Source: an uncultured bacterium
Lineage (GTDB): Bacteria; Desulfobacterota_D; UBA1144; Nemesobacterales; UBA2774
Direction of reading: 5' to 3'
Length of the DNA: 64,000 bases
NCBI GenBank assembly: GCA_963705505.1
Contig: CAVPJU010000010.1
Span: 416,001-480,000 of the forward strand
Numbering within the stretch: the stretch's first letter is position 1; each line of letters begins with the position of its first letter. This document shows, one piece after another, positions 425 through 4,741 of the stretch. The notes below the pieces were generated by a model. The model saw nothing but the letters and a program-made list of their open reading frames with translations, searched no databases and was not told the DNA's origin. The position numbers and the translations under genes were made by a program.

Positions 425-1078
425 ATGGAGAGTTTAAATTTACTGGAGCTGGTTAAACAGGGCTGGATCGCCACCTACCCTCTTATTCTATGCTCCGTTG
501 TTATGGTAGCTATCCTGGGGGAAAGAATATTCGCTTTCAGCGGAATAGCTTCTTCCACACGAAAGCTCACGAGCCTAATAGTCCCCCCACTGACGAGAGG
601 CGACTTCAATACCGCGCTCTCGGTATGCAATAAACACAGGAAAAGTTTACAGGCAAGACTTTATCATTCCATCCTCGCGGAAGAGACCAGAATAAATCCC
701 ATCGATGTGACAGAGCGTTTGGAAGACAACAGGTACGAGGAGGTCCAGGACCTAAAGCAAAATATCTGGGTACTCGGAACTATAGCCAGCAGCGCCCCGT
801 TTATCGGCCTTTTCGGGACTGTCATGGGTATCATCAAATCCTTCCATAGTATGTCCATAGCCGGAACGGGCGGATTCTCCGTTGTAGCGGGCGGGATTTC
901 GGAAGCGCTCGTCGCAACCGCCGCGGGACTCATCGTGGCTATCATCGCTGTCGTTGCGTACAATTATCTGCAAATTAAAATCGCGGGTATTAACGCAGAG
1001 CTGAAAATCAACCATTCCAAATTCATCCAGGCTTATAAACAGGGGAGTATGAACTACCATGGCGATCGGGAAATTTGA
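425..1078 (+). CDS. exbB: MotA/TolQ/ExbB proton channel protein
   Basis: Family motifs LGTIASSAPFIGLFGTVMGI and GISEALVATAAGLIVAI; three TM segments; first gene of an exbB-exbD-tonB run. Confidence 0.92.
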   Translation: MESLNLLELVKQGWIATYPLILCSVVMVAILGERIFAFSGIASSTRKLTSLIVPPLTRGDFNTALSVCNKHRKSLQARLYHSILAEETRINPIDVTERLEDNRYEEVQDLKQNIWVLGTIASSAPFIGLFGTVMGIIKSFHSMSIAGTGGFSVVAGGISEALVATAAGLIVAIIAVVAYNYLQIKIAGINAELKINHSKFIQAYKQGSMNYHGDREI

Positions 1079-1478
1079 GGAAAAGACGGACGAGGATATC
1101 GTAGCGGAAATTAATATTACGCCGCTCACGGACATATTCCTCGTACTGCTGATTATTTTCATGATCACGAGCTCGGCGCTTATCGAATCCGGCGCGAACA
1201 TAAAACTCCCCGAAGTCTCGAAAACCGAGACGGTATCGAGAAACGTCGTGGTAACCCTCACCACGTCCGGGCAAATATTCATCAACCAGAAAGAGATCAA
1301 CAAGAATGCGTTCGAAGAGGAATTAAAAAAAGCCCTATCCGAAAGCAACACCAAAGTCGTCATACTCGAAGGAGACAAGGACGCGCTTCTCGGCGACGCG
1401 GTCAAACTGATTAGCCAGGCAAAGGATGCCGGAGCCAAAGAGATAGCTATCGCCGCAGAAAAATCGCAGACACCCTGA
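1059..1478 (+). CDS. exbD: Biopolymer transport protein ExbD/TolR
   Basis: EINITPLTDIFLVLLIIFMIT motif, one TM segment, periplasmic domain with GDK..A..G; overlaps exbB. Confidence 0.93.
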   Translation: MAIGKFEEKTDEDIVAEINITPLTDIFLVLLIIFMITSSALIESGANIKLPEVSKTETVSRNVVVTLTTSGQIFINQKEINKNAFEEELKKALSESNTKVVILEGDKDALLGDAVKLISQAKDAGAKEIAIAAEKSQTP

Positions 1479-1494: not shown

Positions 1495-2238
1495 ATGCTC
1501 TCCTCGCGGCTAAAAGCATTCATAATACTGTCACTGATACTACACGCCGCGGGCTTCGGTCTGGTCGCTTTCCTCACACCCGGAGAAGTGGACGAAAAAG
1601 CTCAGCCGCTCACGGTCGGCGTCACCACACAGTATGCCGATCCCGGGAAAGGAAAAGGGAACTCGCTCGCCCCCGCACCAATGAATCAACCCGAGCCTGA
1701 AAAAAAAGAAGTGAAGCCCCCCGAGAAGAAGGCTTTTAAGAGAGTCGTCAGGAAAACGCCGGCTAAGGAACCCGAAAAGAAAGAGATAATAAGCCGGGAT
1801 AATAACCCTGTTAACGAGCAAACGGCAGTGACGAGCGCGATCTCGTCCTCCGCAAACACCGGAGAGACGGACAACGTTTCGCCCGGGGGCACTCAGAAAG
1901 GGAGCGGAATCGGAGACAGGGGTACGGGGCTCGATACAAAGGGTTCCGGCAACGGCACTGAAATCGGCTATCCGAATTATGGACTTAACCCCAAACCTAC
2001 TTATCCCACGATAGCGAAGCGGCACGGGTATGAGGGACTCGTCGTCCTTAACGTTTTCGTCCTTGAGAGCGGAAACGTGGGAAAGATAGAAATACGGAAA
2101 TCTTCCGGATATGACGTGCTCGACAATTCCGCGCTCGATGCAGTAAGGAACTGGGTATTCATTCCGGGAAAGAGGAACGGTCAGGCGATGTCGAGCTGGG
2201 TAGTAGTACCGATAAGGTTCGACCTCACTAACGGTTAA
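1495..2238 (+). CDS. tonB: Energy transducer TonB
   Basis: N-terminal SLILH anchor, Pro/Lys/Glu linker, C-terminal P.YP..A...G.EG.V / SSG...LD..A..AV..W.F.P domain. Confidence 0.93.
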   Translation: MLSSRLKAFIILSLILHAAGFGLVAFLTPGEVDEKAQPLTVGVTTQYADPGKGKGNSLAPAPMNQPEPEKKEVKPPEKKAFKRVVRKTPAKEPEKKEIISRDNNPVNEQTAVTSAISSSANTGETDNVSPGGTQKGSGIGDRGTGLDTKGSGNGTEIGYPNYGLNPKPTYPTIAKRHGYEGLVVLNVFVLESGNVGKIEIRKSSGYDVLDNSALDAVRNWVFIPGKRNGQAMSSWVVVPIRFDLTNG

Positions 2239-2246
2239 GTTCGATA

Positions 2247-2269
2247 TTAGTCCCGAAGGCGGGATTAAC
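2247..2269 (+). terminator. Hairpin after tonB, probable terminator
   Basis: ttagtcccg-aagg-cgggattaa stem-loop just after the stop codon; weak U-tail. Confidence 0.45.
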
Positions 2270-2429
2270 ATGACGAATTAACAGCCGCCGATAAATCTTT
2301 ACTACACCTTACCGAACCAAGCATGCCGCACTCATAATAATTGAGCCGGGATAGTATGACAAATAAATTCCGCTTGATATCGCGAAAACATAACTTACAC
2401 TATTGTTACTAGAGCGTCTGAGCCAATCG

Positions 2430-2828
2430 ATGAAAAGATTTTGCGCTTTAGAAAATCCGCGGGAATTCAGTATTAAACAACCAATAATACTTTTGTTATA
2501 TATCAGCCTTATCGGCGTTATTTCACATTACGCCTTACCCCCCGCGTCCATGGGGGAAATACGGCATCCGAGACCTATACACCTTCATGACAACATCAAT
2601 TACCCGAATTATATGGTAGAGGGAGACAATTTTATCCTCGACGACGAAACCACCAATGACTCCGATACTAAAAAAACGTTTATTCTGTTTCTTACCTTAG
2701 TTGCCAGTCTCATGACATCTTCCGAGCCCGGGTCGAAACGCGGCGCATTAAAAAGCTCGGTAAATTCGTTACATTACGATTCGACATTCGGGTATTCCCA
2801 CTTAAGATCACCTCCGTTGATCAAATAA
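2430..2828 (+). CDS. Candidate RAPP-like (RSPP) arrest/leader peptide with an N-terminal hydrophobic segment
   Basis: ATG at 2430; hydrophobic IILLLYISLIGVISHYAL; His-rich RHPRPIHLHD; C-terminal HLRSPPLIK. Confidence 0.55.
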   Translation: MKRFCALENPREFSIKQPIILLLYISLIGVISHYALPPASMGEIRHPRPIHLHDNINYPNYMVEGDNFILDDETTNDSDTKKTFILFLTLVASLMTSSEPGSKRGALKSSVNSLHYDSTFGYSHLRSPPLIK

Positions 2829-2923
2829 AATTAATCTGGATTCAAACTTCAAACGAGATTGTCTGCGGAGGCTTTATGAGCCTATTTAAGGGTTTTATAC
2901 AAAAAACGGAGGTTTTAACAATC

Positions 2924-3253
2924 ATGAATAGAATAATCACATGTATGTTAGTAGCAGCGATGCTTTCAGTAGGAGCGCTTAATTCATTTGCCGTACAGCA
3001 CCAGCAGGGGCAGCAAGTCGCGGCCGCTGCGGCGACTACGATCACGGGTCAAATTACCAAAATAAGGAGCCATAACTTGACCGTCAAGGACCAGGCGGGG
3101 AAATTCCATGTAATAAATTACAGCAGTTCCTCGATGGTTCAGGGACTTAAGAGCGGCGACGAAGTGACCGTGGCATTCGAGAACGGAAAAGCGACTTCAA
3201 TTAAAAAGGTTGAAGGATACACTCCGGCTGCAAGCAGCAACAAACCCATGTAA
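2924..3253 (+). CDS. Small exported beta-rich protein, probably OB-fold-like (alternative in-frame start at 2876)
   Basis: GGAGG SD at 2908-2912; Sec signal ending SFA; pattern ITGQITKI...LTVK...GLKSGDEVTVAFE. Confidence 0.7.
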   Translation: MNRIITCMLVAAMLSVGALNSFAVQHQQGQQVAAAAATTITGQITKIRSHNLTVKDQAGKFHVINYSSSSMVQGLKSGDEVTVAFENGKATSIKKVEGYTPAASSNKPM

Positions 3254-3264
3254 GTAAACTTTCC

Positions 3265-3296
3265 GGGAGGGGCGGGATTTAAACACCGCCCCTCCC
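3265..3296 (+). terminator. GC-rich hairpin, probable intrinsic terminator
   Basis: gggaggggcgg...ccgcccctccc inverted repeat just after the stop at 3253. Confidence 0.7.
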
Positions 3297-3405
3297 CCCT
3301 CGATTTTCGCATATAAATCCGTAATCACTCGATACATCCAAATGTAATACACTTAAAAACGGTATAATTTCCCGGAGAGACTAAACCAAATAAAGGAGGC
3401 CCGCA

Positions 3406-3736
3406 ATGGCATTCGACGAAAAACTCGCAGGTCGTATAAGGGGGATATTTACGGGAAGGAAAGACGCGAGGGAAAAGAAGATGTTCGGGGGTATCGCTTT
3501 CATGCTGAACGGCAACATGTGCTGCGGTGTCATCAACGACCTGCTGATGGCGAGGGTGGGAGCCGACCGGTACGAAGCCGCCCTGTCTCTAGCCACATAC
3601 GAAACCCATGGACTTCACGGGCAAGCCGATGAAAGGGTATGTCTATGTCGAGCCCGAAGGCTATAAATCAGACGAAGAATTAAAAAGATGGGTCGAAAGA
3701 TGTATGGAGTTTGTCTCGACGCTGCCGGAGAAGTAA
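3406..3736 (+). CDS. TfoX N-terminal-domain family protein (+1 frameshift near 3590, likely sequencing error)
   Basis: EKKMFGG.AFM.NG.M motif; the shifted frame continues KPMDFTGKPMKGYVYV...LPEK to TAA at 3734-3736; AGGAGG SD. Confidence 0.85.
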
Positions 3737-4246: not shown

Positions 4247-4741
4247 TTAAAGGGCTTTCTTAATCAACACCACAACCGGAATTTTTCTTCCCCCTGCCCT
4301 TTTGCGGTATTTTTCATAACCCGAATAAAGCCCGACGGCTTTATTCCAGAGCCTTTCGCGCTCCTGCCCTTCCGCATCCCCCGCAATATACCGTGCGGAT
4401 TTCCCGTCTACGAAGACCTCGACCTCCGGATCGGCGCGGAGGTTCAGATACCACGACGGATGGCTGGGGTTTCCGCCCTTGGACGCTATGAGGACGAGGT
4501 TTTCCCCGTCCCGCACAAAAACGAGAGGGATCGTCCTCGGCTTCCCCGTCTTCGCCCCCTTTGTCGTCAGGAGGAGGCATGGCCATGCAAACGTCGTGTT
4601 GTACTTCCCGCCAGTCGCCCGGATAAGCCGGTTATCGACATGCGAGCCCAGGTTGATAATCGCCCAGGCCCCCGCCCTCGTGGAGCCGAACCATGCCAGG
4701 AATCTCTTGAACGAGCTGTTTTTATCAGACGAGTTTGTCAT
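4247..4741 (-). CDS. Deazaflavin (F420)-dependent nitroreductase family protein (Ddn-like)
   Basis: LLLTTKGAKTGKPRTIPL, LIASKGG....P.WYLNL.A.P.V and R.IPVVVL motifs. Confidence 0.9.
   Translation of the reverse strand: MTNSSDKNSSFKRFLAWFGSTRAGAWAIINLGSHVDNRLIRATGGKYNTTFAWPCLLLTTKGAKTGKPRTIPLVFVRDGENLVLIASKGGNPSHPSWYLNLRADPEVEVFVDGKSARYIAGDAEGQERERLWNKAVGLYSGYEKYRKRAGGRKIPVVVLIKKAL

Follow-up and report, generated by a model that had tools for sequence, protein, structure and literature searches.

A membrane-targeted leader family with an invariant C-terminal RSPP motif in Candidatus Dadabacteria-type genomes: a candidate arrest-peptide switch

The window analysed here is a stretch of 64,000 nucleotides (nt) from an uncultured bacterium of the GTDB lineage Desulfobacterota_D, UBA1144, Nemesobacterales, UBA2774 (assembly GCA_963705505.1, contig CAVPJU010000010.1, positions 416,001 to 480,000). 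Between tonB and the gene of a small exported protein it holds an open reading frame (ORF) of 132 amino acids (aa), situated at 2430-2828 and referred to below as the leader. We consider it rather probable that this leader is a RAPP-like arrest peptide with an invariant RSPP core that would unmask the Shine-Dalgarno (SD) sequence of the next gene when stalled, and that would be released by insertion or translocation of its spacer. To judge from its sequences, the leader ORF represents a real gene family that is found only in Candidatus Dadabacteria-type genomes. Sequence comparison and computation provide the ground for its conservation, its architecture, its portability in multiple copies and a predicted, leader-specific RNA helix. 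The initial annotation of the window had described an ORF 3' of tonB with a hydrophobic segment, a His-rich patch (RHPRPIHLHD) and a HLRSPPLIK tail, and all of these elements lie exactly where it had placed them.

The leader family and its genomic distribution

No model in Pfam or NCBIfam matches the leader family (in Pfam, none at E<=1). A single-sequence search of 61 related genomes returned orthologues with open frames from two genomes of the window's genus (54% and 50% identity), together with weak matches just 5' of the small protein's orthologues in another genus; in an alignment of 12 sequences, only M1, L22, Y116, F120 and L125-R126-S127-P128-P129 were invariant. A profile search of 5.8 billion clustered proteins yielded 24 proteins, all with LRSPP near the C-terminus; the source names given are 'Candidatus Dadabacteria bacterium' and 'Thermodesulfobacteriota bacterium', for hypothetical proteins (in the NCBI taxonomy, Dadabacteria is a class of Thermodesulfobacteriota). 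The exhaustive HMMER search of 1.84 billion cluster representatives gave 47 proteins at E<=0.001. Among 65 retrieved homologues LRSPP is present in 62 and FRSPP in one, always within the last 18 residues; the remaining two (P0052 and P0064) diverge abruptly just ahead of the motif and look truncated or frameshifted at their C-termini. The initial annotation had staked its reading on the conservation of the ORF and of RSPP in relatives, and both are borne out by these 63 of 65 homologues and by the invariance of the motif in the alignment.

The final alignment (A4) has 63 rows; six sequences translated from loci were added, and near-duplicates (P0002, P0008, P0011, P0012, P0016), fragments (P0051, P0062) and the motif-less P0052 and P0064 were left out. 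Its mean column identity is 22%, yet R126, S127, P128 and P129 are invariant (63/63), followed by L125 (98%), L22 (92%), Y116 (84%), P124 (83%) and F120 (81%). Information content has its main peak over residues 116-129 and a secondary peak in the N-terminal hydrophobic segment. The second position of the motif is Ser in all 63 sequences, with no A or G variant. Synonymous codons differ in the 20 loci available (five codons for Leu, AGA or AGG for Arg, four for Ser, and CCG, CCT or CCC for the second Pro), which indicates that the constraint acts on the peptide and not on the RNA alone.

The architecture of the family is equally regular. A 19-aa N-terminal window with a hydropathy of at least 1.6 is found in 60 of the 63 homologues, and a net-positive segment stands ahead of the hydrophobic window in 55; the sequence suggests an N-in orientation of the anchor. 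From the end of the hydrophobic window to the first (P-site) Pro of RSPP, the spacer measures 83-105 residues (median 91), and the tail after the two prolines is three residues long in 45/63 (range 2-9). AlphaFold2, run on the leader with the 63-row alignment, predicts helices at 16-35 and 76-97 and no globular fold (pLDDT 59, pTM 0.26). Conservation of the hydrophobic segment at residues ~17-36 holds for the whole family; for the second hydrophobic stretch and for the His patch it is limited to the genus. As for Cys, the window protein contains one (C5), and no column of the alignment conserves this residue.

A profile search of the 61 related genomes identified 21 leader copies in 12 genomes: four in G056, three each in G048 and G052, and two each in G000 and G006. 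The leader precedes the small exported OB-like protein in two genera and in G059. In a second family-level lineage (f7) it is followed by a protein of about 200 aa without Pfam or NCBIfam match, by small-protein paralogues (one or two), and by an HtrA-like ORF (a label read by eye from the N-terminus; this ORF has no Pfam match). The loci with the ~200-aa protein are L036, L048, L051, L041, L045 and L044 (in G056, G052 and G048), and the protein carries the motif ...REWENIR.SLE.CGDIGEFDS...; such loci could be envelope-quality-control operons. Further copies stand before a sulfotransferase (PF13469, 4.2e-18), where the motif reads HHRSPP, and before a beta-ketoacyl synthase (PF00109, 1.5e-58), the latter including a second copy in the window's own genome. 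That leader copies stand in front of unrelated operons argues for a portable cis-regulatory device, and not for the partner of one protein.

The second copy in the window's own genome (locus L046; C10:396999-397409, minus strand) lies about 19 kb before the window and encodes 136 aa ending in ...FLTSLPLRSPPYFTL. It is situated 73 nt 5' of the beta-ketoacyl synthase gene, which is followed by ORFs of 250 aa and 455 aa (by eye HAD-like and aminotransferase-like), and upstream of it are ORFs resembling an acyl-carrier protein and a TauD-type enzyme (likewise by eye, the ketoacyl synthase alone having been checked against Pfam).

Predicted pairing between the putative stall-site codons and Shine-Dalgarno sequences

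In the leader of the window, the core motif is encoded by AGA (R126, 2805-2807), TCA (S127, 2808-2810), CCT (P128, 2811-2813) and CCG (P129, 2814-2816). As the initial annotation had pointed out, the sequences ACCTCCGTT (2810-2818) and AACGGAGGT (2905-2913) are perfect reverse complements, and the second of them holds the SD of the protein starting at 2924 (GGAGG, 2908-2912, 11 nt ahead of the ATG); a wider, imperfect complementarity (21 nt, 76%) extends over 2810-2830 and 2893-2913. The 9-mer itself is found at these two positions and nowhere else in the 64-kb window, and shuffled sequences contain it 0.81 times on average, with 17 of 100 shuffles reaching at least two, so this count is not significant; what goes beyond chance is its placement and folding. 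The minimum-free-energy fold of 2790-2935 includes the helix (-33.1 kcal/mol, z -2.45), and 4 of 200 shuffles fold equally well. In the partition function the SD sits on the Ser-Pro-Pro codons with P 0.91, rising to 0.95 with 150 nt of upstream context. The footprint of a ribosome has a size of 30 nt. Folding with and without it, a check that the initial annotation had proposed, agrees with its idea: the helix is strongly predicted, and when a 30-nt stalled-ribosome footprint around the Pro128 codon is forced to be single-stranded, P(SD paired) drops from 0.96 to 0.49.

As a control, we took 93 same-strand pairs from the genome, based on crude ORF calls (upstream ORF of at least 80 aa; gap of 60-160 nt; GGAGG-N4-11-ATG opening at least 100 codons). 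In 5/93 pairs, or 3/91 after removal of two RSPP leaders, the SD had its chief partner (P>0.3) in the 3'-end window of the upstream ORF. P>=0.9 was reached only at the window locus and at one other ORF of this genome, which likewise has an RSPP tail. CCTCC occurs in the 3'-end window of 5/93 pairs, and the three of these that are not RSPP leaders do not pair. In addition, the 3' end of the organism's own 16S rRNA, ...GGATCACCTCCTTT (contig C3), contains 10 nt identical to positions 2806-2815, GATCACCTCC (codons AGA-TCA-CCT-CC), so the putative stall-site codons literally copy the anti-SD.

For a comparison across leaders, the RNA of 20 first-family and eight second-family loci (see below) from the 61 related genomes was folded; in the first family, pairing was called where the stall-site window was the top partner of the SD with P>0.3 among the 6-9 windows compared. 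By this measure, 11 of the 20 first-family loci are predicted to pair: 2/3 in the window's genus, 1/5 in the sister genus, 0/1 in G059, 5/6 before the ~200-aa protein, 1/1 for the related G056 locus, and 1/2 each for the sulfotransferase and ketoacyl-synthase loci. Pairing with the Ser-Pro-Pro codons themselves reaches P 0.5 in 6/20. The first Pro codon is CCT in 16 of the 20 loci, compared with 21% of all Pro codons and 31% of Pro-Pro first codons genome-wide, a bias that is suggestive, the 20 loci being related. Of the two things that the initial annotation had expected from homologous loci, a conserved R[AGS]PP tail is there (as invariant RSPP) and covarying anti-SD/SD pairs were not found. 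One candidate for covariation, CCG:CGGAGG in two genera vs CCT:AGGAGG in another family-level lineage, was rejected as it comes down to a single event, and 26% of the GGAGG contexts in this genome are CGGAGG. On these models the helix appears physically plausible, recurrent and specific to RSPP leaders; it is not universal and comes without compensatory change.

The second RSPP-tailed ORF of this genome belongs to another leader family. It is an anchored ORF of 128 aa (C6:316974-317360, minus strand; L052:3504-3887, minus strand) ending in NRSPPFLIS (...LSNTNRSPPFLIS). Homology of the two families was considered and rejected: hhalign gave a probability of 2.8% with an alignment limited to the 18-residue tail, and they are handled as separate families. 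Of 41 related genomes, 13 have kept the second family. Eight tails were recovered; all conform to R-[S/A]-P-P, one of them as canonical RAPP, and in 8/8 the two prolines are encoded by CCT-CCT. It is found 5' of an exported protein of 254-290 aa (254 aa in the window's genome), and in one or another locus its neighbours include PCu(A)C (2.4e-38), CopC (7.5e-20) and CopD (6.2e-19). In 7/8 loci the stall-site window is the predicted chief partner of the SD (P 0.88-1.00). This family appears to be a copper-operon leader, of the kind grouped as 'Cu-related' among the RAPP/RGPP upstream ORFs of PMC12992588.

Proposed arrest mechanism and alternatives

RSPP was recovered in arrest screens of random libraries in Escherichia coli and gives partial arrest in ApdA/ApdP (PMC12992588, PMC7897499). 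According to PMC12992588, it is under-represented in proteomes (mean frequency bias 0.31-0.38 in two proteobacterial classes; supplement file 1), RxPP being among the most avoided tetrapeptides because translation is impeded. It was also a query motif of a 2024 screen restricted to ORFs 5' of sec and yidC genes (PMC10987492, supplement file 4), and a 2025 survey of other downstream genes, as presented in section 13 of PMC12992588, dealt with RAPP and RGPP only; the same section describes small secreted or membrane proteins with C-terminal RAPP/RGPP that precede TonB-, copper- and other genes. In the full-text literature no prior description of the LRSPP family was found, and unsearched supplement files or subscription journals may hold one. 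In the supplements of PMC10987492 and PMC12992588 that were searched, Dadabacteria, Desulfobacterota_D or UBA1144 appear in a genome list only.

The traits by which PMC10987492 recognises arrest peptides recur in the leader: a small, unannotated upstream ORF on the same strand (132 aa, 95 nt before the next gene), an N-terminal localisation signal (helix 16-35; hydropathy in 60/63), a conserved C-terminus with an R-x-P-P-like core (RSPP in 63/63 aligned), and a spacer of more than 30 residues (83-105, median 91). The subclass of that study with SecA, SecDF or YidC downstream is another matter, as the genes that follow our leaders encode instead the OB-like protein, the Pfam-less protein, a sulfotransferase or a ketoacyl synthase. 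Further traits of known families were looked for in the leader: it has no match to DUF2946, the family of CutF and CruR, nor to any other Pfam family at E<=1; it carries no CxxC or CxxxC copper motif, in line with the lack of a conserved Cys column in the family; and neither the FxxxxWIxxxxGIRAGP sequence of SecM nor a secA gene downstream was matched (its tail is ...STFGYSHLRSPPLIK). Its motif is RSPP rather than the RAPP of CutF/CruR tails, in the same position and context, and a CutF-type stem-loop shielding the SD is predicted in silico (the helix lies in the minimum-free-energy fold, P 0.91-0.95, and recurs as pairing in 11/20 loci).

A close parallel is with CutF of Rhodobacter capsulatus (cutFOG), which is exported in dependence on the signal recognition particle, has a Cu-binding CxxxC, and by a Pro-rich stall melts a stem-loop masking the cutO SD (PMC9973294; bioRxiv 10.1101/2025.02.05.636593); in these reports CutF was not detectable as a stable protein. 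Like CutF, the leader is a small exported protein directly 5' of the gene that it would regulate, with a Pro-rich C-terminal motif beside a basic residue and a predicted stem-loop over the downstream SD, which in CutF is melted by the stalled ribosome. Unlike CutF, it lacks DUF2946 and CxxxC, its anchor looks uncleaved (CutF, for its part, carries a cleavable Sec signal), its anti-SD would be the Pro-Pro codons themselves, the gene concerned encodes a small OB-like protein and not a multicopper oxidase, and a metal signal is unsupported. With ApdA/ApdP and the 'RQH' RAPP-like peptides (Sakiyama 2021; Fujiwara 2024, 2025) it has in common the N-terminal signal, the spacer of more than 30 residues, R-x-P-P near the stop, and a family-specific conserved stretch ahead of R-x-P-P (PMC10987492, PMC7897499, PMC12992588). 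It differs from them in its invariant Ser, in having no sec or yidC gene downstream, in its several copies per genome and in its confinement to one uncultured class; no sequence homology of the leader to these peptides came up, with no match in Pfam or NCBIfam. CruR of Bordetella pertussis (DUF2946) resembles the leader as an upstream ORF with a C-terminal RxPP, a long intergenic region, a TonB-system neighbourhood and a poor predicted structure; its RAPP stall blocks Rho-dependent termination and its signal peptide is dispensable (PMC9426467). The leader shows none of the Rho use, CXXC copper sensing and signal-peptide independence of CruR. In SecM of Escherichia coli, upstream of secA, an export signal is combined with a C-terminal arrest sequence that has Pro at the A site, as proposed here, and the stalled ribosome opens a stem-loop that sequesters the downstream SD (PMC7897499); the SecM core is RAGP, without sequence similarity to the leader, and SecM provides feedback on the Sec machinery, unlike the leader, whose genes are not translocon components. 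The initial annotation had grouped SecM, CutF and CruR as export-targeted leaders that act on an SD-occluding structure. This fits SecM and CutF and is wrong for CruR, which is Rho-dependent and independent of its signal peptide (PMC9426467). Judged by sequence, the logic of the leader would be like that of CutF and SecM, while the leader itself appears to lie outside DUF2946 and every described arrest-peptide family.

By analogy with these systems we infer a stall, its site, a releasing signal and a regulatory output. The N-terminal anchor would leave the ribosome and go to the membrane. With Y116...F-x3-x-L-R-S-P in the exit tunnel, the P site holding Pro128 (CCT) and the A site Pro129 (CCG), formation of the peptide bond would stall as in RAPP/RGPP. 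The stalled ribosome would occupy 2810-2818, which otherwise would be paired with 2905-2913, so the SD at 2908-2912 would be free and the small protein made. Membrane insertion or translocation of the ~90-residue spacer would then pull on the chain and end the stall (some other event on the exported segment is possible as well), the ribosome would terminate three codons on, the helix would re-form, and the downstream gene would be off.

A number of observations weigh against this mechanism. RAPP-like motifs alone are insufficient for arrest, and most do not stall (PMC7897499, PMC10987492). The family is patchy: the profile search detected no leader in the other 49 of the 61 genomes, including seven of the nine other genomes of the same genus. 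The pairing of SD and stall site is not predicted in 9/20 loci, including 4/5 of the sister genus; an opened footprint lowers P(SD paired) by at least 0.2 in only 6/20; and in the closest relative, G007, the SD stays paired under a simulated stall by re-pairing elsewhere. The pairing is broken without compensation in G020 (first Pro CCC; L010) and in G006 (SD AAGGAGA), and it could be a by-product of CCU-CCN codons, which are anti-SD by nature. Within the protein, Y67, D71/D77, K81 and F87 (46-65%) and a hydrophobic-hydrophobic-Ser tail are moderately conserved, and this mid-protein conservation could reflect a role of the finished protein. Finally, RSPP is not clearly depleted in the long ORFs of this genome: six cases were observed in ORFs of at least 200 aa vs 8.1 expected, from crude ORFs, some of them false, and too few to inform.

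The main alternative is that the leader is a stable, small bitopic membrane protein whose conserved C-terminus (Y..F...PLRSPP-hydrophobic-hydrophobic-Ser) serves as a motif of the protein itself, for docking or protease recognition for instance, without arrest, the complementarity being a by-product of CCU-CCN near a strong SD. We regard this as unlikely, though it has several facts on its side: the constant length and spacer, the moderate conservation of the mid-region and of the tail after the prolines, the predicted second helix (residues 76-97), the HtrA-like ORF (by eye, no Pfam match) downstream in lineage f7, the loci in which pairing is missing (9/20), and the lack of clear RSPP depletion. 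It is countered by the paralogous leaders that head unrelated operons, those of cytoplasmic enzymes included, and by a non-homologous family that resembles the first in nothing but its R[S/A]PP tail, its architecture and its SD pairing. In addition, no fold is predicted, conservation peaks in the very stretch that would fill the exit tunnel, and RxPP is strongly avoided and impedes translation (PMC12992588).

A further possibility accepts a stall at RSPP and places its output at the level of the transcript, either as a block of Rho-dependent termination in the manner of CruR or as protection of the mRNA. The lengths between leader and gene (34-149 nt, mostly 90-150) are long, as was noted for CruR, where the RAPP stall blocks Rho (PMC9426467), and in the sister genus the leader is conserved where no SD pairing is predicted. 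The intergenic regions contain 11-25% C, with G>=C in most; they are neither C-rich nor G-poor, and therefore make poor rut candidates. The helix between SD and stall site was specific to RSPP in the genome-wide control, and the terminator scan found no intrinsic terminator between the leader and the small gene. A transcript-level output seems quite improbable.

Least probable of all, in our view, is that RSPP is an ordinary Pro-Pro pause resolved by elongation factor P (EF-P), with the locus reporting on the activity of EF-P or the supply of prolyl-tRNA instead of a signal from secretion or the envelope. The genome has an EF-P gene, the regulation by CutF needs EF-P (bioRxiv 10.1101/2025.02.05.636593), and RSPP is a weaker arrest core than RAPP and RGPP, which resist EF-P (PMC12992588). 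This would leave unexplained the conservation of the anchor, the narrow range of the spacer and the 14 conserved residues ahead of the two prolines.

The window locus, the downstream protein and the possible regulatory meaning of the family

The features of the locus are compiled in Table 1. The three genes 5' of the leader are exbB, exbD and tonB; the stop of tonB at 2238 is followed by a gap of 191 nt. An alternative in-frame TTG at 2403 would give a leader of 141 aa, and the His patch corresponds to leader residues 45-54. From the leader stop to the start of the next gene there are 95 nt on the same strand, and an Rfam scan of 2200-3420 returned chance-level matches only (E about 10), so no known RNA family accounts for the intergenic region.

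Table 1. Coordinates of features at the leader locus (positions in the window)
Feature	Position	Strand	Basis or remark
exbB	425-1078		Pfam MotA_ExbB, 9e-32
exbD	1059-1478		Pfam ExbD, 6.9e-27
tonB	1495-2238		Pfam TonB_C, E 6.5e-23
Candidate sigma-70-like promoter, TTGATA-16-TACACT	2374..2401	+	Consensus scan, 9/12 matches; pattern match only; within the gap after tonB
Leader ORF, 132 aa + stop	2430..2828	+	ATG 2430 to TAA 2826-2828; C-terminus HLRSPPLIK (...STFGYSHLRSPPLIK)
N-terminal hydrophobic anchor, residues ~17-36	2478..2537	+	Net-positive N-terminus before the anchor; predicted helix 16-35
Candidate arrest sequence, Y116...F120...(P/H)124-L125-R126-S127-P128-P129	2775..2816	+	Information-content peak at residues 116-129
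Putative P-site (Pro128 CCT) and A-site (Pro129 CCG) codons	2811..2816	+	Analogy with RAPP peptides (PMC12992588)
5' arm (anti-SD)	2810..2830	+	Core ACCTCCGTT (2810-2818) over S/P/P/L codons; arm extends past the stop codon
Inner hairpin, aatct / agatt	2833-2837 / 2856-2860		
Second CGGAGG	2866..2871	+	Alternative or decoy partner for the anti-SD; in-frame ATG 2876 behind, start not conserved
3' arm	2893..2913	+	Includes the next gene's SD, GGAGG (2908-2912)
Downstream gene, 109-aa exported small five-stranded beta-barrel (OB-like) protein	2924..3253	+	Signal-peptide-like N-terminus
GC-rich hairpin, possible terminator	3265..3297	+	Read from the sequence; terminator scan without call, no clean T-run

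The second CGGAGG, the in-frame ATG behind it and the inner hairpin are present as the initial annotation had described them. The ATG at 2876 was rejected as the real start of the small gene: G007 and G006 do not conserve the extension, the relatives start at the Met of MNR..., and the database gene call is the 109-aa form. In G006 (locus L003), the Pro-Pro codons are predicted to pair with an upstream ACGGAGGT, the equivalent of 2866-2871, and not with the true SD; there is no start codon behind this ACGGAGGT, and the true SD is weaker (AAGGAGA). It may represent a decoy or a three-state arrangement.

Further downstream, at 3406-3736, lies a TfoX_N gene in two pieces that are in different frames, one of 86 aa (3406-3666) and one of 42 aa (3608-3736). 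Each piece matches PF04993, and the sister-genus orthologue is intact (109 aa; L011:2143-2469); the split is either a frameshift or an assembly error. At 4247-4741 (minus strand) there is a member of the F420H2-dependent quinone reductase family (PF04075, 4.2e-37), the place of which beside the cluster of leader, small protein and TfoX is kept in both genera.

Two contigs bear on transcription. A metatranscriptome contig (X19, 151 nt, one difference) spans 2736-2886, and a cDNA-labelled contig flagged 'probably DNA' (X18, 309 nt) spans 2668-2975, from the 3' end of the leader into the small gene. The sequencing runs are stored as contigs, in which RNA ends, strand and level are not visible, and together the two give at most a weak hint of transcription of the leader and of co-transcription with the small gene; no weight attaches to positions that lack RNA cover. 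Near-identical strains have no change in either arm, which is uninformative at 3-7 differences per contig.

The 109-aa protein is predicted by AlphaFold2 to form a five-stranded beta-barrel over residues 38-95 (pLDDT about 90 there, 70.5 overall). Foldseek against the PDB gave nothing at E<=0.001 (best E 3.8e-3), and the best, weak matches are generic OB folds, including the periplasmic CusF (1zeq), SilF (8bxj) and YgiW (1nnx). All Pfam matches (KfrB, CusF_Ec) were sub-threshold, as was that to NCBIfam ExtJ (27.4 bits; cut-off 52.5). Homologues are found in 23 of the 61 related genomes. Their invariant columns are a Gly, a Val, a Lys and one Ala of the signal peptide, with near-invariant Asp, Val and Ile; the alignment has no conserved His, Met or Cys column. 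With no conserved metal-ligand column, a role as metal chaperone is not supported.

This bears on the suggestion that a metal bound to the His patch modulates the stall, as copper does on the Cys motif of CutF/CruR, and ties the leader to the adjacent TonB system. Such a link would agree with the position next to exbB-exbD-tonB and with the leader of the sister genus (L010, in G020 and relatives), which is divergent from a TonB-dependent-receptor-like ORF (identified by eye from its sequence). It would also agree with the known RAPP/RGPP leaders before TonB and copper genes (PMC12992588, section 13), with the faint CusF likeness of the small protein and with one semi-conserved His column of the leader (51%). 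The TonB-system neighbourhood recurs in two genera with a different gene order. The initial annotation had raised the patch as a possible metal sensor, and this idea fared poorly: the patch is specific to the genus, and a conserved metal-ligand column is absent from the leader and from the small protein alike. The leader, moreover, has no CxxC or CxxxC and no match to DUF2946, and other copies precede sulfotransferase and ketoacyl-synthase genes. A metal sensor of this kind is very unlikely.

Should the stall of the RSPP leader be real, the family would be one of natural arrest peptides with an invariant RSPP at their core. In the sources cited here, RSPP has so far figured in random-library screens, in partially arresting ApdA/ApdP mutants and as a minority motif in clusters of upstream ORFs that mostly carry RAPP. 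The family would also extend RAPP-like control beyond Sec/YidC genes to the uncultured class Candidatus Dadabacteria, offer an unusually clear case of a single portable leader module duplicated before unrelated operons, and provide the first regulatory context for a widespread small periplasmic beta-barrel protein. With Pro-Pro codons that would be both stall site and anti-SD, the locus makes a compact test system of ~500 nt, which could separate the contributions of peptide and RNA.

More tentatively, and with doubt prevailing, we suggest that Dadabacteria possess a lineage-specific set of multi-copy, membrane-targeted RSPP leaders with stall codons copying the 3' end of their own 16S rRNA (GAUCACCUCC), each of which would be sensor and anti-SD at once. 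Together they would form a translational regulon free of transcription factors that reports on the status of membrane insertion or of the envelope. If so, the module would span periplasmic OB-fold proteins, the HtrA-like ORF, a sulfotransferase, lipid-synthesis genes and, through the convergent second family, copper genes, and arrest competence combined with 16S mimicry would explain the invariant Ser, at a position at which A or G is tolerated in RAPP families.

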